DNA of 63,256 bases, counting the filler. It is 6 parts of 6 records of this genome, joined end to end, with 100 filler letters (N's around TTAATTAATTAA, not from the genome) between each part and the next. Parts side by side here need not be neighbours in the genome. Positions count along the whole stretch, not along the records: positions 54,030 to 63,256 come from DRR723986_5542; 5 more parts are not named here. One strand, 5' to 3'. This document shows positions 54,031 through 62,026 of the stretch, piece after piece. Each line of letters opens with the position of its first letter. Position 1 is the stretch's first letter. The position numbers were made by a program, and so were the translations under genes. Below the pieces are notes generated by a model that had not been told where the DNA came from, did no database searches, and saw nothing but the letters and a program-made list of their open reading frames with translations.

Positions 54031-54549
54031 ACCGATCCCTCCACGGGCGAAACCCTGCCCAATGGCGAGGTTGGCCAGATCGAGGTGCGCGGGCCGAATG
54101 TGTTCAAGGGCTACTGGCAGATGCCCGAGAAAACCGCCGCCGAGCTGCGCACCGACGGCTTCTTCATCACCGGCGATCTCGGCAAGATCGACGAGGACGG
54201 CTACGTCCACATCGTTGGCCGTAACAAGGACCTGATCATATCGGGCGGCTACAACATCTATCCCAAGGAGATCGAGCTGGTGCTGGATGACCAGCCCGGC
54301 GTGCTGGAAAGCGCCGTGGTGGGCGTGCCGCATCCCGATTTCGGGGAGACCGTGGTTGGCGTCATCGTTCCGGCCCCGGGCGAAAGCCCTGACCTGGAGG
54401 CCATTGCCAAAGCCGCCGGAACTTCGCTTGCGCGTTTCAAGCATCCCCGCAAGCTGGTGGTGGTCGATGAACTGCCGCGCAACACCATGGGCAAGGTGCA
54501 AAAGAACGTTTTGCGTGAGATTTTTCACGACATGTTCACGTCCGCCTGA
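54031..54549 (+). CDS. matB: malonyl-CoA synthetase, 5'-truncated
   Basis: GPNVFKGYWQMPEKT, GFFITGDLG, KDLIISGGYNIYPKE, LPRNTMGKVQKN. Confidence 0.85.
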   Translation, partial: TDPSTGETLPNGEVGQIEVRGPNVFKGYWQMPEKTAAELRTDGFFITGDLGKIDEDGYVHIVGRNKDLIISGGYNIYPKEIELVLDDQPGVLESAVVGVPHPDFGETVVGVIVPAPGESPDLEAIAKAAGTSLARFKHPRKLVVVDELPRNTMGKVQKNVLREIFHDMFTSA

Positions 54550-54583
54550 GCAGGGTTGCGCTTAGTTAGTAGCCCTTATTACT

Positions 54584-54597
54584 TTGATTTTTATCAA
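54584..54597. promoter_or_regulatory. perfect FNR-type box with no evident target gene
   Basis: TTGAT-TTTT-ATCAA. Confidence 0.5.
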
Positions 54598-54732
54598 AAC
54601 TTGAGCTGCTGAATCTGGAGAGCGGGCTGAGTTACTCATACTAGATTCGAAGGGATAAACCTGGCCACCATGGCATCCCCCGCCGCGTGATCAGATCCTC
54701 TAGTCATCAACAATCACATCGGACCAGTCAGA

Positions 54733-56319
54733 TCAGGCTAGCCAGCGGCGAACACCCAAACTGTTGGATTTACTTGGTGTGCCGTCATCCTCATCACCAA
54801 GAAATCGAGTGTATGCTTCCATCATGGTGCGTAATGACTTTTTTTCCGGATCCTCATCTTTGGAGACGCTAGAAGTTCGAGATGTGTAGCGGGACGGGCC
54901 ACCAATGAAGACAGGTCGCGTAGGATCGGCGGCCTGAAGCCATTCTCGCGGCTGTAGATCGACGTTTTTCCCGACGATGATCCGGTTCGAGAAGGCATTT
55001 TCGACGATTTCGCGTTTTTCAGCTGCAGTCCCGGAAGTATGAAGCCCTGCAAGGTTTTTCATGAGTTCGAGGAACATTCTACGTTCGTGCAGTATGGCCG
55101 CTGGATCGGGTAGATTTCGGAGTTCTTGCCGCAAGTTGGTGATCGAGAGTTCCAACTCGATCTTCTTGGAATGGTAGAAAGTAGCGTCGATCTCGCCGTC
55201 GATCAGGAGGTCCGCCAACCGGTTCAGACGCGCTTCCTCGGATGACAGGCGCAGCTTTAGGGCCTCCGCTCTGCCCACGACCTCGGCCATGCAATCCTTT
55301 CTCAGCCAAGAGGCCGCAAGCCGACTTGAGCGTGCCGGAGTGATCTCCAGCCTCCTCAGGCAGTCGACAACCTGGGCTTCAATACAATCTTCGCGGATCG
55401 TCTTTGTGGGGCACTCGCGGACCTGGCACCGGTAGTACACATTGCCTTTCTGCCGCTCCGGCGACATCGGTCCACTGCAGAGACCGCAGCGAAAGAGGCC
55501 CTGGTAGACATGGTTGTGGCGGGTGATGACCTTTCCATTCCGGCCCGCCTTGACGTCCTGGGCACGCTTGAACAGCGACGCCGAGATTAGCGGCTGATGA
55601 ACTCCCCTGTAGGACTTTCCTGAACGCATGATCACGATCAGCCCCGTGTAGAACGGATTATTGATGATGGACTCAATTCCACAGAGGCTCAGTGGCCGGT
55701 TCGCGGCGTTCCTGAGACCGCGCCGGTTCATTTCTGCTCTCAGCGATCTCAGGGAGTGTCGCCCACTTGCGTAAAGCTCGAACATCTCTGTGATAAGCGG
55801 CGCTGTCTTTGGGTCCGGCGTCTTTGGCCGGCCCTTACCGTTGTCGAGGTAGCCAATTGGTGCTCTGAACGGATAGAGACCTTGTTTCAGGCGCCCATGA
55901 AGACCCTTGATGGTCTCTTCGCGCAAATTCCTGATGTAGTCCGCTGCGATGACCGCTTGAATGTCAGCCGTCAAACGCCCTCCACGCGAGTTGAAGTCGA
56001 GGTTCTCCGTGGCGATGAACACATCGACACCCATGTCCGGGAGTTCGCTGAACATGGCCCAATCTCTGAGATTGCGGGCCGAGCGATCGATCTTATGGAT
56101 GATCACGCCCCGTGCCGCTCCTCGCTTCAACTGCCCAAGCATCTGATTGAAGATCGGGCGCCCGCCTTTTGCGGCAGTCTGCCTTTCCTCGAACCATTTG
56201 ACGACCGACAGGTTCTGGCGACTCGCAAAGCTTGTTATGGCATCCTTCTGAGCCTCGAGTGATACCCCCTCTCCTTGCTTCTGAGTGGACACTCGGATGT
56301 AGCCAAAGCACGGTTTCAT
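54733..56319 (-). CDS. large serine recombinase (resolvase, recombinase, Zn-ribbon and coiled-coil domains)
   Basis: YIRVST catalytic Ser, KIDRSARN, APIGY, NPFYTG, HQPLIS, CGLC...YYRC....C. Confidence 0.93.
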   Translation of the reverse strand: MKPCFGYIRVSTQKQGEGVSLEAQKDAITSFASRQNLSVVKWFEERQTAAKGGRPIFNQMLGQLKRGAARGVIIHKIDRSARNLRDWAMFSELPDMGVDVFIATENLDFNSRGGRLTADIQAVIAADYIRNLREETIKGLHGRLKQGLYPFRAPIGYLDNGKGRPKTPDPKTAPLITEMFELYASGRHSLRSLRAEMNRRGLRNAANRPLSLCGIESIINNPFYTGLIVIMRSGKSYRGVHQPLISASLFKRAQDVKAGRNGKVITRHNHVYQGLFRCGLCSGPMSPERQKGNVYYRCQVRECPTKTIREDCIEAQVVDCLRRLEITPARSSRLAASWLRKDCMAEVVGRAEALKLRLSSEEARLNRLADLLIDGEIDATFYHSKKIELELSITNLRQELRNLPDPAAILHERRMFLELMKNLAGLHTSGTAAEKREIVENAFSNRIIVGKNVDLQPREWLQAADPTRPVFIGGPSRYTSRTSSVSKDEDPEKKSLRTMMEAYTRFLGDEDDGTPSKSNSLGVRRWLA

Positions 56320-56471
56320 AAATCATTTGATTTAGTCTCTGACTCTATCATATCCGCAGGATTCCGCGACTCTGGTAGCTCCGGCCATGGCCAAGACCCG
56401 TCGGCCAGTAACCTTAAGAACATGCGTTTGCAGAGCGCGAGGTGGCGATCGATGTGGGGATCATTGGTCAT
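56316..56471 (-). CDS. 51-aa ORF translationally coupled to the recombinase
   Basis: MTNDPHIDRHLALCKRMFLRLLADGSWPW...; ATGA overlap; ATG 6 nt after a -10 box (leaderless). Confidence 0.65.
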   Translation of the reverse strand: MTNDPHIDRHLALCKRMFLRLLADGSWPWPELPESRNPADMIESETKSNDL

Positions 56472-56477
56472 TTCGGC

Positions 56478-56510
56478 AGTGTACCGAACCACCTTGGTCA
56501 GCCTAGTCGG
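56478..56510 (-). promoter_or_regulatory. element promoter motif copy 1
   Basis: CCGACTAGGC-N17-TACACT-N6-ATG. Confidence 0.75.
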
Positions 56511-56539
56511 CGCGCCATTCGGGATCTGGATAAAGTAGG

Positions 56540-56567
56540 AAGAAAAGGCGACCCCGAAGGGTCGCCT
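56540..56567 (-). terminator. rho-independent terminator after the DUF932 gene
   Basis: AGGCGACC-CUUCGG-GGUCGCCU followed by UUUCUU. Confidence 0.85.
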
Positions 56568-56581
56568 GAGGTCTGACGGGA

Positions 56582-57340
56582 TCATGCCAGCGCCTGCAAG
56601 GTTGCAGGGCTGAACGCACCCGGCTCTCGACCCGCCTCACAGGTCGCATCAAGCACCTGGTGCAGACGATGCGTGAGCGCCGGGGCTTCCGCGATCCGGC
56701 CTTCAAGCGCATGCGTCACACAGTTGAAGAGCCGCCACGCGGTCTTCACGCCCCAGTCATGGGGCGGGTTCTCCCACCGCTCCATCACCGACGGGATGCG
56801 GGTGACGGTGATGACTCCCGCCCGGTAGAGCTCGAGCACCACGTGGTCGGCCTCGCCTTGCGTGAGCGTCCGGCTGCGGTATCGGGTGATGGTCCGATGC
56901 TGGGCTTCGCGCTGATTGGCCAGAGGCTCGATCAGGTCTCCGACAAGTCCCGGCAGGTCGCGCTTGGCCAGGGTCGTGTGCCGCCGCTTGACCACGTGGT
57001 CCGCAATGAAGGCGAGGTTGTCACAAACGAAGACCCGGGACCCGAAGGATATCCCGATCGGGAAGGTCTTGTCGTGGCTGTTTCTCAGGCCCACCGCGTC
57101 GGTGTAATCCCCGTAGGTGCTTCTGAGCGACAGGACCCCGAAGTAACGCATCCCGTCAGGCGTTACCCCGTGGTGTTCCTCCTCCACGGTATGGCCGTAG
57201 AAGCCGAGCGTGAGCCGGACCACGTCCACCAGGCGGTGGTGCGGGATTGGCACATGAGTCCGGGTGGCGTCCGGGGTCTCCAGGTGCCGAAGGCCGGAAT
57301 AGTCGAGCGGGTCCGCGCCCGCGTGCAGCATGAGCGTCAT
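56582..57340 (-). CDS. DUF932-family protein
   Basis: THVPIPH, GLRNSHDK, GSRVFVCDNLAF, RRHT, TAWRLFNCVT; RBS GGAGA. Confidence 0.8.
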   Translation of the reverse strand: MTLMLHAGADPLDYSGLRHLETPDATRTHVPIPHHRLVDVVRLTLGFYGHTVEEEHHGVTPDGMRYFGVLSLRSTYGDYTDAVGLRNSHDKTFPIGISFGSRVFVCDNLAFIADHVVKRRHTTLAKRDLPGLVGDLIEPLANQREAQHRTITRYRSRTLTQGEADHVVLELYRAGVITVTRIPSVMERWENPPHDWGVKTAWRLFNCVTHALEGRIAEAPALTHRLHQVLDATCEAGREPGAFSPATLQALA

Positions 57341-57385
57341 GGCTTGTCTCCAATGATGTTGGGAAAGGAACAGGGTTCCGACACC

Positions 57386-57418
57386 AGTCTACGGGAGCAT
57401 GCCGCATGGCCTAGTCGG
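57386..57418 (-). promoter_or_regulatory. element promoter motif copy 2
   Basis: CCGACTAGGC-N17-TAGACT, then CTGTTCCTTTCCC. Confidence 0.75.
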
Positions 57419-57435
57419 GGCAATATCGGCTGATG

Positions 57436-58617
57436 CTATGCGGCCAGAGAACGGGCCGGTAATGGCTGCGTCATCGCAGAGAAGGCCTGGGTCTTCTGTC
57501 CCTCAACCATCAACTGCACGAAGGCGCGGTGATTGGGCTGGGAGACAAGATCGGTCACATCTACCGTACCGAGTTGTTGGGCAAAGGTCGGGGCATCCAT
57601 GGCCCCGAGGCGGAACACCATCAGGCTGCCCACATTGCCAAGGACAGCCTCGAACACCTCGCGCTCGGTCTGGACGATATGCTGATGGGCCAAGGTCAGG
57701 CCCAAACCGTATTTACGGGTCTCGGAGAGCATCCCCGTGAAAGCCGCGGTCGTAAAGCAATGGAACTCGTCGACATGGACCATGAAAGGGCGACGCTCTG
57801 CCTGAGGGAGATCATGGCGTGAGAAGCCCGCGTTCATGAGACTTGAGACGAGAAGGCCACCAAGGACATTGGCCGTATCAATGCCAAGGCGCCCCTTGGC
57901 GAGGTTCACGATCAGGATTTGGCCCTCGTCTATGATCCTGCGGAAGCGGAGCGGCTCTTCAGGCTCGCAGATGGCAGTGCGGACGACCGGGTTGGCCAGG
58001 AAAGCTCCAAGCTTGTTGGCAATCGGCGCGACCCCGTCCACGGCTGTTTGGTAGTTCATGTTCGGGAATTCCTGCGTCCAGAAGGCCAGGACCTGCGCAT
58101 CGGTCACACGGGAGATGACCTGCCGCCGAAAGTCCTTCTCGACATAAAGTCGGACGATGTCCCGGATGTCCGCACTTGGCTGTTCAAGGAGCGCAAGGAT
58201 TGCATAGCGAAGGAGGTGCTCCATGCGGGCCCCCCAGGCATCGGCCCATTGCTTCTTTAGGCTCTCGATTAGACCAGACGCTATGAGGGGACGGTAGGAT
58301 GCCGAGACGCGCGTCAGCGGATTGTACCCGTAGGGGCTTCTGGGATCCGCGACATTCCAGTAGTGATGAGGCACGGTGAGACGGGCGGAAAGCTCCGCCG
58401 CAAGATCTCCATGCGGATCAATGAGGCAAAAGCCGATCCCTGCACGTGCATCATGCAGGGCGAGATTGCCCAGAAGCGTGGATTTACCCGTCCCGGTCTG
58501 GCCGATGACATAGAGATGCATCAGGCGATCCGCGAGGCGGATTCCGAAGGGGATATCCCCATAGTGGCGACAACCAAGGCCAAGGGGTGTGATGTGGTCA
58601 GATGACAAGCGCATCAT
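57436..58617 (-). CDS. soluble TrwB/TraD/HerA-like P-loop ATPase
   Basis: HLYVIGQTGTGKSTLL (Walker A), IDPHGDL, VHVDEFH (Walker B), ETRKYGLGLTLAHQ, GNVGS; no TM segments; start 58617 or 58614. Confidence 0.85.
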   Translation of the reverse strand: MMRLSSDHITPLGLGCRHYGDIPFGIRLADRLMHLYVIGQTGTGKSTLLGNLALHDARAGIGFCLIDPHGDLAAELSARLTVPHHYWNVADPRSPYGYNPLTRVSASYRPLIASGLIESLKKQWADAWGARMEHLLRYAILALLEQPSADIRDIVRLYVEKDFRRQVISRVTDAQVLAFWTQEFPNMNYQTAVDGVAPIANKLGAFLANPVVRTAICEPEEPLRFRRIIDEGQILIVNLAKGRLGIDTANVLGGLLVSSLMNAGFSRHDLPQAERRPFMVHVDEFHCFTTAAFTGMLSETRKYGLGLTLAHQHIVQTEREVFEAVLGNVGSLMVFRLGAMDAPTFAQQLGTVDVTDLVSQPNHRAFVQLMVEGQKTQAFSAMTQPLPARSLAA

Positions 58618-58620
58618 GGC

Positions 58621-58654
58621 ATTGTGGGGCGGCACGGCGACAAACCCTAGGCAG
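58621..58654 (-). promoter_or_regulatory. element promoter motif, degenerate copy 4
   Basis: CTGCCTAGGG-N18-CACAAT-N6-ATG(58614). Confidence 0.5.
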
Positions 58655-58696
58655 CCATTCAGACGCCTATCCAATATCCTCTGGCGCGATAGATCA

Positions 58697-58729
58697 CCGA
58701 CTAGGCGAACGCGTTCTCTGAGCTAGACT
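58697..58729 (+). promoter_or_regulatory. element promoter motif copy 3
   Basis: CCGACTAGGC-N17-TAGACT, then CTGTTCCTTCCC. Confidence 0.75.
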
Positions 58730-58817
58730 GGGATCAGAGCTGTTCCTTCCCTTATCGCCTTTCGCCGGGTGCGCCCGAACCCCTTCGGGCGGCCACCCAA
58801 GCGGAAGGAGATGTCCT

Positions 58818-59348
58818 ATGGTGACGATCAAGGGAGAAGAGGTTGGCACGCTCGGCACGATGCCTGTGTGCGAAATCTGTGGCTCGGAACGCGTTGTTCA
58901 CGATGCCTGGGCCTGCTGGAACCGCGACTATGCCATCTGGGAACTCGAGACCGTGTTCGACCAGATGTATTGCCGACAATGCGAGGCTGAAACACGTTTC
59001 ACCTGGAGGCGGGTTGATACCGGTCCATGTATCGCCGTGCGGGACCTCAACGACAGGTTTCGGAAACAGGGTCTCGGCAACGGCAGCGTCATGATCACCG
59101 CCGGACTGCAAGAGTGCGGAGAGGCGTTCATTCGCAAAGCTGTGGATGCAGTCCGCGCCTTTGACGCCTTCACAGAAGCCAATGACCCCTGGGGCGAGCA
59201 TGACTTCGGCGCGATCGAGATCGACGGCGAAAAGGTCTTCTGGAAGATCGACGCCTACGATCCTAGCCTGACAACCGGGTCTGAAAACCCAGCAAACGAG
59301 GCCAAGACTCACCGCGTCCTAACGATCATGCTCGCACGGGAATATTGA
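58818..59348 (+). CDS. DUF3768-family protein with N-terminal Zn ribbon
   Basis: CEIC...CRQC; LNDRFR, FDAFTEANDPWGEHDFG, FWKIDAYD, RVLTIMLAREY; RBS AAGGAG. Confidence 0.85.
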   Translation: MVTIKGEEVGTLGTMPVCEICGSERVVHDAWACWNRDYAIWELETVFDQMYCRQCEAETRFTWRRVDTGPCIAVRDLNDRFRKQGLGNGSVMITAGLQECGEAFIRKAVDAVRAFDAFTEANDPWGEHDFGAIEIDGEKVFWKIDAYDPSLTTGSENPANEAKTHRVLTIMLAREY

Positions 59349-59352
59349 TCAC

Positions 59353-59381
59353 AGCCGCTCCGGAGACGGGGCGGCTCCTTT
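59353..59381 (+). terminator. terminator after the DUF3768 gene
   Basis: AGCCGCUCCG-GAGA-CGGGGCGGCU followed by CCUUU. Confidence 0.7.
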
Positions 59382-59445
59382 GCGCTTCCGGCCCATTCCG
59401 GACCTTCACCCTAAGCTCCCGATGCTGCGGTCGCAGCCCGCTTTC

Positions 59446-59517
59446 CGGACATTCGCTGCAGCAGCGAAATCTCGAGGTCCATGAATGCGAAAAGTGCGGA
59501 CGAGGCGCTCTTTCGCT
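59446..59517 (+). repeat. cargo-flanking motif A (copy 2)
   Basis: CGGACATTCGC...TGCGGACGAGGCGCTCTTTCGCT, similar to 31567-31624 (minus strand). Confidence 0.5.
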
Positions 59518-59602
59518 GCACTCGAACCAATGTCTTCTATGTGCACATTGCGGTTAACTTCACAGTAGTAAGGCATTCTGGTCGAGGGTGTGCCAATGAT
59601 CA

Positions 59603-62026
59603 TTAGACACCTTTAGGCAGGGCGTTTTCAACATCGAACAGGCAAGGCGGGCAGACTGTGGCGCGAGTGGTTTCGCCGATGACCAGAACCTCCACCTCTC
59701 TGCCGGTTTCACCATGGGACGGGTGGATATAGGCCATGGCAAGGTTCTTGCCGGTACGATAGCCCCATGCGGCCGACGTTATTGAACCGATTGGCACGCC
59801 ATCGACGAAAACCCCTTCTCCCGGGTGGGCCGGTCCCGCCTTGCTATGGACATCCAGAACAACACGTTCTCTGCGATTTCCAGCTTTGGCTTGCGCCTGA
59901 AGCCCGTGTTTTCCGGGGAAATCCTTGGTCATGTCGACAAAACGATGCAGTCCTGCTTCGATAGGATTGAACTCGGTGATGAAATCACCCTTCCAGTGGC
60001 CATAGCCTTTTTCCAGACGCATCGAGTCGATCGCGAACATGCCGAAATTCGACAGGTCAAACGCTTCTCCCGCCTTGGTCAGGATTTCGTAGGCGGCAAA
60101 AAGCTGATTGTTGGGAATGTGCAGTTCGAACGCCTGTTCGCCGGAATAGCTGATGGCGATGGCCAGCGCCTCGACGTGACCGACAAAAACACGCTGCGCC
60201 GTCAGCCAGGGGAAGTCAGACTGCGCCCAATTCGTGCGCGGCGATACGGCGGCCAGCAGGTCACGGGTCTTGGGGCCAGCAAGCACCATCATCGTGTGGG
60301 TGTTGGTGCGGCTTTCGATGCGAATGTCTGAGCCAACTGGCAGGTGCTCGGTCAACCAATCCATATCGTGGTATTCAGCGGTCGCCGCTGACCCGTAGAA
60401 GATGCTCCCATCCGGCAGCGGTACAATCGTCGCTTCGCCCGAGATATTTCCTTTCGGTGTCAGGAAATAGCACAGGCTGGTCCTTCCAGTCTTGGCCGAC
60501 ACCTTGGAACAGGTCAGACTGCTGATCCAGTCGAGCGCATCGGTTCCGCTAATGCGATAATGGTTGAACCCTGACAACTCGGCCAATCCAACATTTGCAC
60601 GCAGCGCCTCGATCTCGCCCCCCACGACATCGTGCCAGTTCTGGAATGCGTATCCGTGGGTGGGTTTGAAATCCGCATCCGGCTTGTAGAACTCTGTCCG
60701 CTCCCAGCCATTGACGACGCCAAACTCGGCACCTTTGGATTTCAGCACCGGGTAAAGCGGTGATGCCTTGGCCGGGCGACCGGCCGGGCGGTGTTCATGC
60801 GGCAGGTGCCAGCGAAATTCATGCTGGTAATCCTCGATGGATTTCAGCGCAGTGAACTCGGTATTGGCAAAGCTGGTGATGCGGCGCGGGTCAAGCTGCC
60901 AGCTATCCCATTCAGTTTCGCCGTGCACAATCGTCTGCGCAAGCATCTTGCCATATCCGCCGCCTTCGCCGATGCCCACGCGCAATCCGTTCATCGACCA
61001 GCAATTGCGCAGGCCCGGTTGCTTGCCAACCAGCGGCCCCGCATCCGAGGCATAGGCAATCGGGCCGTTTACCACCGACTTGATGCCGACCTCCTGCAGG
61101 CAGGGCAGACGGTCAAAGATCGGTGCCATCTTCGGCAACAGGCGATCCAGATCATCGGGGCAAAGCGCATTGACGAAATCGGGGTCGATCCCATCCATCC
61201 CGAACGTCTTGCAGTCATGTTCGTAGATGCCAACCAGAAGGCCTCTCTTTTCCTGCCGCATGTAGAATGTGTCACGCGGGCAGCGCACCATGGGCACGCG
61301 GGTGTCACGCTCGACCAGTTCCGGGATGTCTTCGGTGACGAAATACATGTGTTCCATCGCGATGACCGGGTATTCGATGCCCATCAGCGCGCCGACTTCA
61401 TTTGCGCGATAGCCCGCCGCGATCACGATATGCTCGGCGGTGATCGTGCCGCTTTCGGTTGTCACCAGCCACTCGTCATTGGGCAGCTGTTTCAGGGCGA
61501 TCACGGGCGTGTTCCGATGAATCTTCGCCCCCATTTTGCGAGACCGTGCGGCCAATGCCTGACACAGCTGCGCAGGGTCAATGTCTCCGTCCTGTTCATC
61601 CCACATCGCTGCCAGAACCCCGTCGGTGTTCAGCAACGGATTGCGCCGCTTTGCCTCAGAGGCATCAAGCAGATCAAACTCAATCCCCAGCCCTTTGGCC
61701 ACCGACATGATGTGATGCACTTCGTCAACATGAGTGGGGTTGGTCAAAAGCCGCATGCCACCCGTGGCATGGTGATAGTTGATCGGATAGGCTGGGTCAT
61801 CGGCCAGCTCCTTGTAAAGCTTGATGGTGTAGTCACGCAGCAAGAGTAGCAACTGGTTGAACGCCACACTGGGACATTGCGCCGCCGAATGCCAAGTTGT
61901 GCCGCTGGTCAACTCGTTGCGTTCCAGCAGTACCGCATCGGTCCAGCCTTCCTGACAAAGGTGGTAGAGAGCCGACAATCCACCAACGCCACCCCCAACA
62001 ACAACGACACGCGCATGGCTTTGCAT
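59603..62026 (-). CDS. GcvT-family FAD-dependent amine dehydrogenase (dimethylglycine dehydrogenase-like)
   Basis: VVVVGGGVGG, LTSGTTWHSA, NGWER, SYSGEQAFELH, SMRLEKGY. Confidence 0.9.
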   Translation of the reverse strand: MQSHARVVVVGGGVGGLSALYHLCQEGWTDAVLLERNELTSGTTWHSAAQCPSVAFNQLLLLLRDYTIKLYKELADDPAYPINYHHATGGMRLLTNPTHVDEVHHIMSVAKGLGIEFDLLDASEAKRRNPLLNTDGVLAAMWDEQDGDIDPAQLCQALAARSRKMGAKIHRNTPVIALKQLPNDEWLVTTESGTITAEHIVIAAGYRANEVGALMGIEYPVIAMEHMYFVTEDIPELVERDTRVPMVRCPRDTFYMRQEKRGLLVGIYEHDCKTFGMDGIDPDFVNALCPDDLDRLLPKMAPIFDRLPCLQEVGIKSVVNGPIAYASDAGPLVGKQPGLRNCWSMNGLRVGIGEGGGYGKMLAQTIVHGETEWDSWQLDPRRITSFANTEFTALKSIEDYQHEFRWHLPHEHRPAGRPAKASPLYPVLKSKGAEFGVVNGWERTEFYKPDADFKPTHGYAFQNWHDVVGGEIEALRANVGLAELSGFNHYRISGTDALDWISSLTCSKVSAKTGRTSLCYFLTPKGNISGEATIVPLPDGSIFYGSAATAEYHDMDWLTEHLPVGSDIRIESRTNTHTMMVLAGPKTRDLLAAVSPRTNWAQSDFPWLTAQRVFVGHVEALAIAISYSGEQAFELHIPNNQLFAAYEILTKAGEAFDLSNFGMFAIDSMRLEKGYGHWKGDFITEFNPIEAGLHRFVDMTKDFPGKHGLQAQAKAGNRRERVVLDVHSKAGPAHPGEGVFVDGVPIGSITSAAWGYRTGKNLAMAYIHPSHGETGREVEVLVIGETTRATVCPPCLFDVENALPKGV

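Follow-up and report, generated by a model that had tools for sequence, protein, structure and literature searches.

Coordinated promoters with a composite operator in a small integrative element of Alphaproteobacteria, and their likeness to controller-type switches

SetCD and AcaCD, the activators of the SXT/R391 and IncC elements, are helper-supplied members of the FlhDC family, and their boxes sit at the −35 position before many units of a mobilizable island. A preliminary description of a 63-kb stretch of DNA (63,256 nucleotides, hereafter the window) had seen a comparable layout in an integrative element of ∼4.8 kb that encodes a large serine recombinase, and proposed that the whole element is switched by a trans-acting factor, either a SetCD/AcaCD-type helper activator or an alternative sigma factor, or by the methylation state of CTAG, as an undescribed system. 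Here we analyze the promoters of this element together with those of its relatives.

A second group of described switches comprises the controller (C) proteins of the C.PvuII, C.AhdI, C.EcoRV and C.BclI kind, which bind as dimers; many are made from leaderless RNA, and many are unlinked to restriction-modification genes (PMC2632904). The operators of C-protein-like regulators lie at weak promoters (PMC8789080, PMC2632904). In ICEMlSymR7A, one of the integrative and conjugative elements (ICEs), the C-protein-like QseC and QseC2 bind dual operators as dimers at overlapping promoters; the qseC mRNA is leaderless, the QseC2 operators contain ATCC-N7-GGAT, and several families of QseC-like genes occur on alphaproteobacterial ICEs (PMC8789080).

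Comparison of the element with its relatives supports, at the level of sequence, promoters that are coordinated within one mobile element, and it is highly probable that they are co-regulated through a dedicated operator conserved in the family. We put at about 50% the further reading that they are regulator-dependent promoters of the C-protein/QseC kind, and that the window holds a derivative without a regulator, which is either controlled in trans or an orphan. From the earlier proposal we thus retain coordinated promoters, with the same geometry in relatives, the switching of the element as one unit and, for the window copy, probable control in trans, and let go of the unrelated helper, the sigma factor and CTAG methylation, of which no sign was found. 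To call the system undescribed was an overstatement, since this kind of control is known from C proteins and QseC/QseC2; what is new is probably a variant of it, in an element family that was not found in the searched literature under its gene set of DUF3768, ATPase, 51-amino-acid (aa) open reading frame (ORF), large serine recombinase, helix-turn-helix (HTH) protein and 161-aa protein.

Promoters of the window element

The 10-mer CCGACTAGGC occurs in three exact copies in the window, at 56501–56510 (−), 57409–57418 (−) and 58697–58706 (+), where 0.09 are expected and none of 100 shuffles reaches three; allowing up to two mismatches, there is no excess in the window (60 versus 54.6 expected). 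Exactly 17 nt separate each copy from a TACACT (copy 1) or TAGACT (the other two) downstream, each time before a transcription unit, and the combined pattern CTAGGC-N17-TANACT has three matches in the window against 0.00 expected. Since the three 17-nt spacers agree at just 4–6 positions, the repeated promoter is not a duplicated block. A fourth, degenerate copy, CTGCCTAGGG-N18-CACAAT, precedes the ATPase gene at 58655–58621 (−), and the sequence CTGTTCCTT(T)CCC shared by copies 2 and 3 lies at 57373–57361 (−) and 58740–58751 (+). An ATG stands 6 nt past the −10 box in copy 1 and also in copy 4, where it is the second of two, the first standing at 3 nt. Apart from the counts against expectation and the ATG at 3 nt, these features had been listed in the preliminary description and were recovered here, as were its gene calls (large serine recombinase, DUF932, ATPase, DUF3768), with which Pfam agrees. 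The four promoters are the following.

56471..56533, minus strand: P_small, with TATC at 56532–56529, AAT at 56519–56517, the 10-mer at 56510–56501, the −10 box TACACT at 56483–56478 and the predicted +1 at the A of the ATG at 56471
57379..57441, minus strand: P_duf932, with GATAT at 57427–57423, the 10-mer at 57418–57409, the −10 box TAGACT at 57391–57386 and the predicted +1 near 57379
58614..58655, minus strand: P_atp, with the box CTGCCTAGGG at 58655–58646, the −10 box CACAAT at 58626–58621 and the predicted +1 at the A of the second ATG, 58614
58674..58736, plus strand: P_duf3768, with ATATC at 58674–58678, GATAG at 58688–58692, the 10-mer at 58697–58706, the −10 box TAGACT at 58724–58729 and the predicted +1 at A 58736

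P_duf932 overlaps the 3′ end of the ATPase gene, and P_small scores 13/14 as an operator on the family pattern. Against the features of a housekeeping sigma-70 promoter, the −10 box (TAnACT) is present and a TTGACA-like −35 at 16–18 nt is absent: CTAGGC, at a spacing of 17 nt, matches TTGACA at 1/6 positions and TAGGCN, at 16 nt, at 3/6, and a consensus scan for sigma-70-type promoters over 54400–59700 (5.3 kb) returned none, with 1.9 expected. These figures bear on the earlier view that the 10-mer takes the place of TTGACA.

A promoter grammar across the family

The ATPase has >5,800 relatives; for comparison, 80 loci (L numbers below) were kept from at least 562 ATPase-encoding stretches of species-representative genomes, and they span Rhodobacterales, Sphingomonadales, Hyphomicrobiales, Caulobacterales and others. 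The gene order DUF3768 (divergent), ATPase, DUF932 where present, small ORF, recombinase is kept in ∼45 of them, DUF932 being an optional member (6/80 loci). None of the 80 loci contains the exact CCGACTAGGC, whereas the geometry of box plus −10 recurs in front of orthologous genes in many relatives; what is conserved, on the aligned sequences, is a promoter grammar and not the exact 10-mer.

This grammar was read from 77 unique promoters of relatives, belonging to five gene classes, which were aligned on CTAG and are numbered relative to it. Their consensus is aTATC-N9-GATaT-N3-GCC-N2-CTAG-N19/20-(T/C)AnnnT-N6-+1. In the distal block, T at −26 is found in 48 of the 77, A at −25 in 57, T at −24 in 62 and C at −23 in 42; the middle block has [G/C] at −13, A at −12 (57) and T at −11 (54); and the proximal block has G at −5 (55), C at −4 (45) and C at −3 (51), followed by CTAG. 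The ATC-N9-GAT dyad formed by the first two blocks is centered ∼53 nt before the predicted start and 18 nt upstream of the CTAG box. It is present in the window's P_duf3768 (as ATATC-N9-GATAG) and P_small, and all three good promoters of the window fit the consensus. Aligned in this way, the 10-mer is the promoter-proximal third of a longer composite site, of which it represents one element's version.

The same rules reappear gene by gene. Among 37 unique regions upstream of the small ORF, anchored on the ATG, the −10 box has T in 28, A in 29 and T in 31 at its conserved positions and is followed by the ATG after 6 nt; CTA precedes the box by exactly 19 nt in 20 of the 37 regions and by 20 nt in a further 2, which matches the window geometry. 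With the usual distance of 7 nt from the −10 box, transcription would start at the A of the ATG, so that the small-ORF/recombinase transcript is predicted to be leaderless. The ATPase genes of relatives, preceded by CTAG-N20-(C/G/T)A(C/G)AAT-N6-ATG, are predicted to be leaderless as well; the more specific GCnGCCTAGG-N20-CA(C/G)AAT-N6-ATG stands before the orthologous ATPase in L001, L002 and L004, and it is by this spacing rule that we place the start of the window ATPase at its second ATG, 58614. Before the DUF3768 genes of relatives, box, −10 and N6 are followed by a conserved start, AGATCGTTC(T/C)TTCC, and L004 has the orthologous P_duf932 box at an equal distance from the gene. L081, a larger relative, carries 8 box-type promoters among 10 scored sites. 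The two CTAG boxes of the divergent promoters lie anywhere from 39 to 54 nt apart among elements, and a single palindromic dimer site between them was rejected for that reason.

Box copies directed antisense into the recombinase gene were also seen, located at its 3′ end or across it: L081:6994 (+), L081:6243 (+) and L023:6849 (−). Those of L081 have a good −10 box (TAAACT, TAGACT), the L023 copy, a 17/19 match that overlaps the recombinase stop codon, has no clear one, and no equivalent was seen in the window. These copies may be antisense promoters against the recombinase mRNA.

The boxes also vary from element to element. Over positions −13 to −1, boxes of the same element are 58.5% identical (28 pairs, 11 loci), against 36.3% for orthologous boxes of different elements (496 pairs), and none of 5000 permutations reaches the observed value; the excess falls at −7, −6, −2 and −1, while the spacer stays at background. 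L019, for example, has GATATGGTGACCGCTAGGC three times and L023 has CATAAnTTGnCTGCTAG four times, although the likeness varies in strength by element, and the L004 boxes have little in common beyond GAT...C..CTAG.

The host background was taken from ∼58 kb of host DNA in the window and from a pattern scan of the host genomes of five relatives (G001–G005). In the window, the relaxed box plus −10 pattern has 10 matches against 6.3 expected, 3 of them being the element copies, which leaves the host DNA at chance level. In G001, G002 and G005 the matches that carry the element's extended box are confined to the element or its immediate neighborhood; G003 and G004 add little. Of the outcomes that the preliminary description had named as refuting it, neither the lack of the motif in homologous elements nor its frequency at ordinary promoters of the host was therefore observed, with the grammar taken as the conserved unit. 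In metagenomes, CCGACTAGGC-N17-TANACT gave 90 single matches, of which 0/90 encode an element protein; these were set aside as chance matches, and no twin element emerged from them. Ordinary host sigma-70 promoters with a poor −35, whose shared upstream sequence stems from descent, gene conversion or a general host protein, would account for the housekeeping-like −10, for the 3/6 likeness of TAGGCN to TTGACA at 16-nt spacing, and for the retention of boxes in an HTH-less element. This is nevertheless an improbable explanation, as the trinucleotide conserved across many genera is CTA(G/T) and not TTG, the spacers have diverged to 4–6/17 while the box stayed identical, and the host DNA shows no enrichment of the pattern.

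The rarity of CTAG, which had suggested a methylation switch, is itself real: the window has 30 copies against ∼225 expected from base composition, and 10 of the 30, the number given earlier, lie within 54641–59266, so that a third of all copies fall in the element. That CTAG methylation switches the promoters is nonetheless barely credible, since conservation of the motif extends to elements whose hosts belong to several orders, no methyltransferase gene is present in the element, and in some relatives CTAT, CTGG or CGTG replaces CTAG with the geometry kept. The CGTG type was seen in P_small of L044 and L056 and in their divergent region; L044 has GCCGACGTGGC where the window has GCCGACTAGGC, the ATATC-N9-GATAT dyad is not evident in this sub-lineage, and no regulator homologue was found in the two genomes.

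The grammar described here is open to test in widespread small integrative elements of Alphaproteobacteria, and the motif can be used to find such elements and to delimit their transcription units.

The regulator gene and what may bind the operator

In 42 of the 80 loci an Xre-type HTH protein of ∼115 aa (Pfam HTH_3) is encoded, always on the DUF3768 side and in the orientation of DUF3768, and 30 of the 37 loci that hold all four core genes carry it. Among the seven core-complete loci without it, four have almost no flank, in L017 (in L082) and L030 the gene lies immediately past the stretch that was fetched, and L044 has none: its genome shows no HTH homologue with the query used, and three genomes in all show none. 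The HTH gene has its own box (18 unique P_hth, in relatives only), and several P_hth carry an extra palindrome around CTAG, such as CCTCC-N6-GGAGG. A ∼161-aa protein is always encoded after the HTH gene, overlapping its end (e.g. L023:1078–1563 (−) and L081:15203–15700 (+)); it matches no family of Pfam, NCBIfam or PHROGs and may be a partner of the regulator.

No homologue of either protein was found anywhere in the 63-kb window (its masked stretches lie elsewhere), which bears out the earlier remark that no activator gene is evident. The nearest relatives, L001–L004, all have the HTH gene, the fetched stretch of L003 lacking just the 161-aa partner, so the window copy looks, from this comparison, like a recent regulator-less derivative. 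Of these relatives, L001 is a full-length element and comes from Aliiruegeria lutimaris DSM 25294. Operator score as a correlate of regulator presence was dropped as not discriminating, since in two loci that seemed to be HTH-less the gene lies directly beyond the stretch.

The nearest solved structure to the HTH protein is the controller protein C.BclI (PDB, E = 4.5e-4), and the likeness to C-protein systems, as far as the available text describes them, reaches beyond the fold of a small Xre-type HTH: at C-box promoters, which are weak, the operators cover the −35 or sit just upstream of it, the regulator gene is itself preceded by an operator, and the regulon includes leaderless transcripts. 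The differences are that no restriction-modification genes are present here, that each element has the operator at 4 to ∼8 promoters and not at 1 or 2, that it is the ATPase and recombinase operons that are predicted to be leaderless while the regulator mRNA has a leader, and that the window copy is without a regulator gene. ATATC-N9-GATAT-N3-GCC-N2-CTAG is not among the C-protein motifs described in the available text, though the logos and site lists of PMC2632904 may hold a closer match. What QseC/QseC2 share with the proposed switch is that C-protein-like proteins, encoded by mobile elements of Alphaproteobacteria, control excision and transfer and bind dyad operators as dimers, and the ATC-N9-GAT geometry found here includes the QseC2 motif ATCC-N7-GGAT as one of its cases (PMC8789080, available text). 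Unlike the QseC/QseC2 case, the regulator is partnered here by the ∼161-aa protein without a Pfam family, no quorum-sensing genes were seen in the annotated loci (no search was aimed at them), the elements are serine-recombinase islands of 5–10 kb and not a large symbiosis ICE, and the box stands at every unit and not at one divergent promoter pair.

Together these likenesses suggest the following mechanism. Four regulator-dependent promoters would drive every transcription unit of the ∼4.8-kb element, each with a housekeeping-type −10 box, without a usable −35, and with the place of the −35 taken by a composite operator that spans about −62 to −30, made up of ATATC-N9-GATAT near −53 and GCC-N2-CTAG at −40 to −32. 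Host RNA polymerase would fire these promoters only when a dimeric, Xre/C-protein-like regulator of the family occupies the operator, so that all units would switch on jointly: the small ORF and recombinase for excision, the ATPase for transfer, and DUF3768 and DUF932. Two of the units would be leaderless, and DUF3768 would be gated further by an RNA hairpin over its ribosome-binding site. The regulator gene, which in most relatives lies just past DUF3768, would have been lost from the window copy or never have been in it, while near-perfect operators were kept, and the element would be controlled in trans by the regulator of a sibling element or be an orphan. The whole element thus appears to be gated jointly by one composite operator, a −10 of the housekeeping type, the leaderless state of two operons, and a hairpin over a ribosome-binding site.

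How firmly the parts of this mechanism can be held differs. That the binder is the family's own C-protein-like HTH protein we consider close to an even chance, or a little under it, on the sequence likenesses given above. That the regulator activates and does not repress is more tentative still, its two grounds being the absent −35 and the −53 position, a point that counts against the proposal. Four further points weigh on the same side. A dimeric HTH protein does not obviously account for the proximal GCC-N2-CTAG, which lacks dyad symmetry. The recognition helix is nearly constant (HQSxVSDLE), and the element-specific box positions −7, −6, −2 and −1 do not visibly track it, as judged by eye. 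The −10 box of P_hth lies 28–49 nt before the start codon, which gives the regulator mRNA a leader that many C genes do not have. Finally, both the window element and L024 have operators that score 13/14 with no regulator gene found, in L024 across its genome (the recombinase match of this locus is truncated); this fits recent loss or supply in trans, and it also fits a binder other than this HTH protein.

A different source of the regulator is an unrelated helper, such as a conjugative element, a plasmid or a phage, that would supply a box-binding activator in the SetCD/AcaCD style. The arrangement of one box at the −35 position before many units of an island switched as a whole is the same, no regulator gene was found in the window element, and the presence of a coupling-protein-like ATPase without a mating-pore or relaxase family makes its transfer probably helper-dependent. 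Yet no SetCD/AcaCD-type gene and no helper-borne box was found, the extended-box matches of G001, G002 and G005 lying only in or beside elements and on no other replicon or island; this negative comes from a strict scan pattern, and it would not reveal a transient helper. Moreover, the boxes differ from element to element, and most relatives encode an Xre-type regulator of their own behind the same box, so that the likeliest trans factor is the regulator of a sibling element and not an unrelated helper, which we regard as distinctly unlikely.

The box could instead be read by a sigma factor. An alternative sigma factor, of the host or associated with the element, that takes the CTAG box as its −35 would be consistent with the fixed 19–20 nt between the upstream block and the −10 box at every unit. 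Extracytoplasmic function (ECF) sigma factors, however, use a CGT-type −10, and the −10 here is of the housekeeping type; no sigma-like gene was found in the window element or among the tested extra proteins of relatives, and no regulon is evident in the host DNA. We consider this reading very improbable.

The variation of the box from element to element draws attention to the recombinase, whose DNA specificity may change as well. Large serine recombinases recognize half-sites through two domains, and the bipartite, non-palindromic site, GATAT with CTAG 13 nt on, recalls such recognition by analogy. The recombinase, alone or with the 51-aa protein, might thus bind the boxes as att-like half-sites and autoregulate the element, which would explain the co-variation of the boxes and agrees with the box copies at the 3′ end of the recombinase gene in L023 and L081. 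But the sequences beside the predicted element ends, which are themselves uncertain, resemble the box in the window only in ACTAG when compared by eye, the regions downstream of the recombinase are not conserved across loci, and to our knowledge there is no precedent of a large serine recombinase that activates promoters; this, too, is improbable.

If a C-protein-like regulator does bind the operators, controller-type switches would extend from one or two promoters to regulons of a whole element, and the regulator-less copy would be a naturally occurring example of one sibling element controlling another. A stronger form of the same idea, which we think unlikely, makes the window element, with its four near-perfect operators, a satellite within its family, whose excision, ATPase and DUF3768/DUF932 are switched on only by the regulator of a full-length sibling that enters the cell or is induced in it; it would amount to a parasite-of-a-parasite hierarchy among small integrative elements, built on an element-specific promoter code.

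Leader RNA, gene content and element ends

The DUF3768 transcript appears to have a second layer of control, in which a predicted hairpin hides the ribosome-binding site.

58736..58817, plus strand: predicted 5′ leader of DUF3768, 82 nt, with a hairpin at 58754–58812 that pairs the Shine-Dalgarno sequence GGAAGGAG (58803–58810)

The minimum free energy of the leader is −41.8 kcal/mol (z = −3.44). Across an alignment of 24 sequences, pairing holds in 93.9% of cells and compensatory change is seen at 10 of the 14 pairs, a result that 0/500 shuffles match and that slid controls, with ≤59% paired, do not reach. The 5′ end of the leader is conserved, including CTGTTCCTTCCC (58740–58751), its DNA is 75–87% identical in several genomes of one sampled family, and no Rfam family matches it. 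The DUF932 leader has no significant structure. Leadered transcripts share GATC-n-GTTC(C/T)TT just past the predicted +1, in DUF3768, in DUF932 and in one cargo unit, L081:10074 (−), where it could be a DNA site or an RNA signal.

The element and its genes were placed as follows.

54565..59397, no strand: integrative element, ∼4.8 kb, between convergent host genes, with predicted ends taken from contig breakpoints
54733..56319, minus strand: large serine recombinase, 528 aa, Pfam Resolvase, Recombinase and Zn_ribbon_recom
56316..56471, minus strand: 51-aa ORF, predicted to be leaderless, its stop overlapping the recombinase start, with homologues in ∼50 related loci
56546..56567, minus strand: terminator-like hairpin between DUF932 and P_small
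56582..57340, minus strand: DUF932 protein, 252 aa, Pfam PF06067, E = 1.9e-8
57436..58614, minus strand: soluble coupling-protein-like ATPase, 392 aa if the second ATG is used, Pfam TrwB_AAD_bind, DUF87 and TraG-D_C
58818..59348, plus strand: DUF3768 protein, 176 aa, with an N-terminal CxxC...CxxC module, divergently transcribed, Pfam PF12599, E = 2e-35

The recombinase also matches XisF and CcrB of NCBIfam, below their cut-offs. The 51-aa ORF has the motif H-x3-H-L-x-L-C ... G-x-W-P-W ... followed by an acidic tail; with its ∼50 homologues it forms a family of 43–55 aa with an invariant-looking G-x-W-P-W and a DS..SED.VES tail; the stop of these ORFs either overlaps the recombinase start or precedes it by a few dozen nt. 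The protein is net acidic save for one basic helix, is translationally coupled to the recombinase, and matches no Pfam or NCBIfam family; we infer a candidate directionality factor.

DUF3768 as the activator was considered and left unsupported, since it has no HTH and its structure model (predicted local distance difference test score, pLDDT, 87.8) has no significant fold match in the PDB (best AcrVIA2, E = 0.13). It also has no sequence match among solved structures, a search of the Atlas returned DUF3768 clusters alone, and its invariant NDPxxEHDFG block is more suggestive of an active site than of DNA reading. The searched literature yielded no paper in which DUF3768 is mentioned and, in its available texts, no functional study of DUF932.

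With its own recombinase and a coupling-protein-like ATPase, and with no mating-pore family found in a Pfam search of its proteins, the small element resembles the integrative and mobilizable elements described in the available text of PMC5704250; it differs from them in that no relaxase family was detected in its proteins by Pfam, NCBIfam or PHROGs (an oriT was not sought). A fit of the element's size to gene-transfer-agent heads was dropped, the usual family member with the regulator module being larger.

The element ends come from contigs of other organisms that were compared with the window (four of 19 matching sequencing runs, from 13 studies). Matches to the window end at 59383–59397 (X3), 59389–59396 (X17) and 59383/59412 (X4) on the right, and at 54569 (X17) on the left, and an 8-nt direct repeat, TTGCGCTT, was read by eye at 54557–54564 and 59380–59387. 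Of a 16-nt inverted repeat, 88% complementary (54614–54629 / 59434–59449), one arm falls within the inferred bounds of the element and the other beyond them; the repeat was dropped as a pair of attB arms, as the contig breakpoints put the right end near 59389–59397. In a DNA search of 401 sampled genomes of one family no near-identical genome was found, the best identity being 69%, and the DUF3768 region was matched in 44 of them.

The DNA of X3 is identical to the window, including the left flank, up to 59397 and then differs, and the right flank restarts at 59383, so that a 15-nt stretch (window 59383–59397) stands on both sides of the extra segment; the continuations of X3 and X17 past 59397/59396 are alike. 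The window copy may be a deletion derivative that lacks the regulator module, or the X3/X17 forms may carry a tandem insert.

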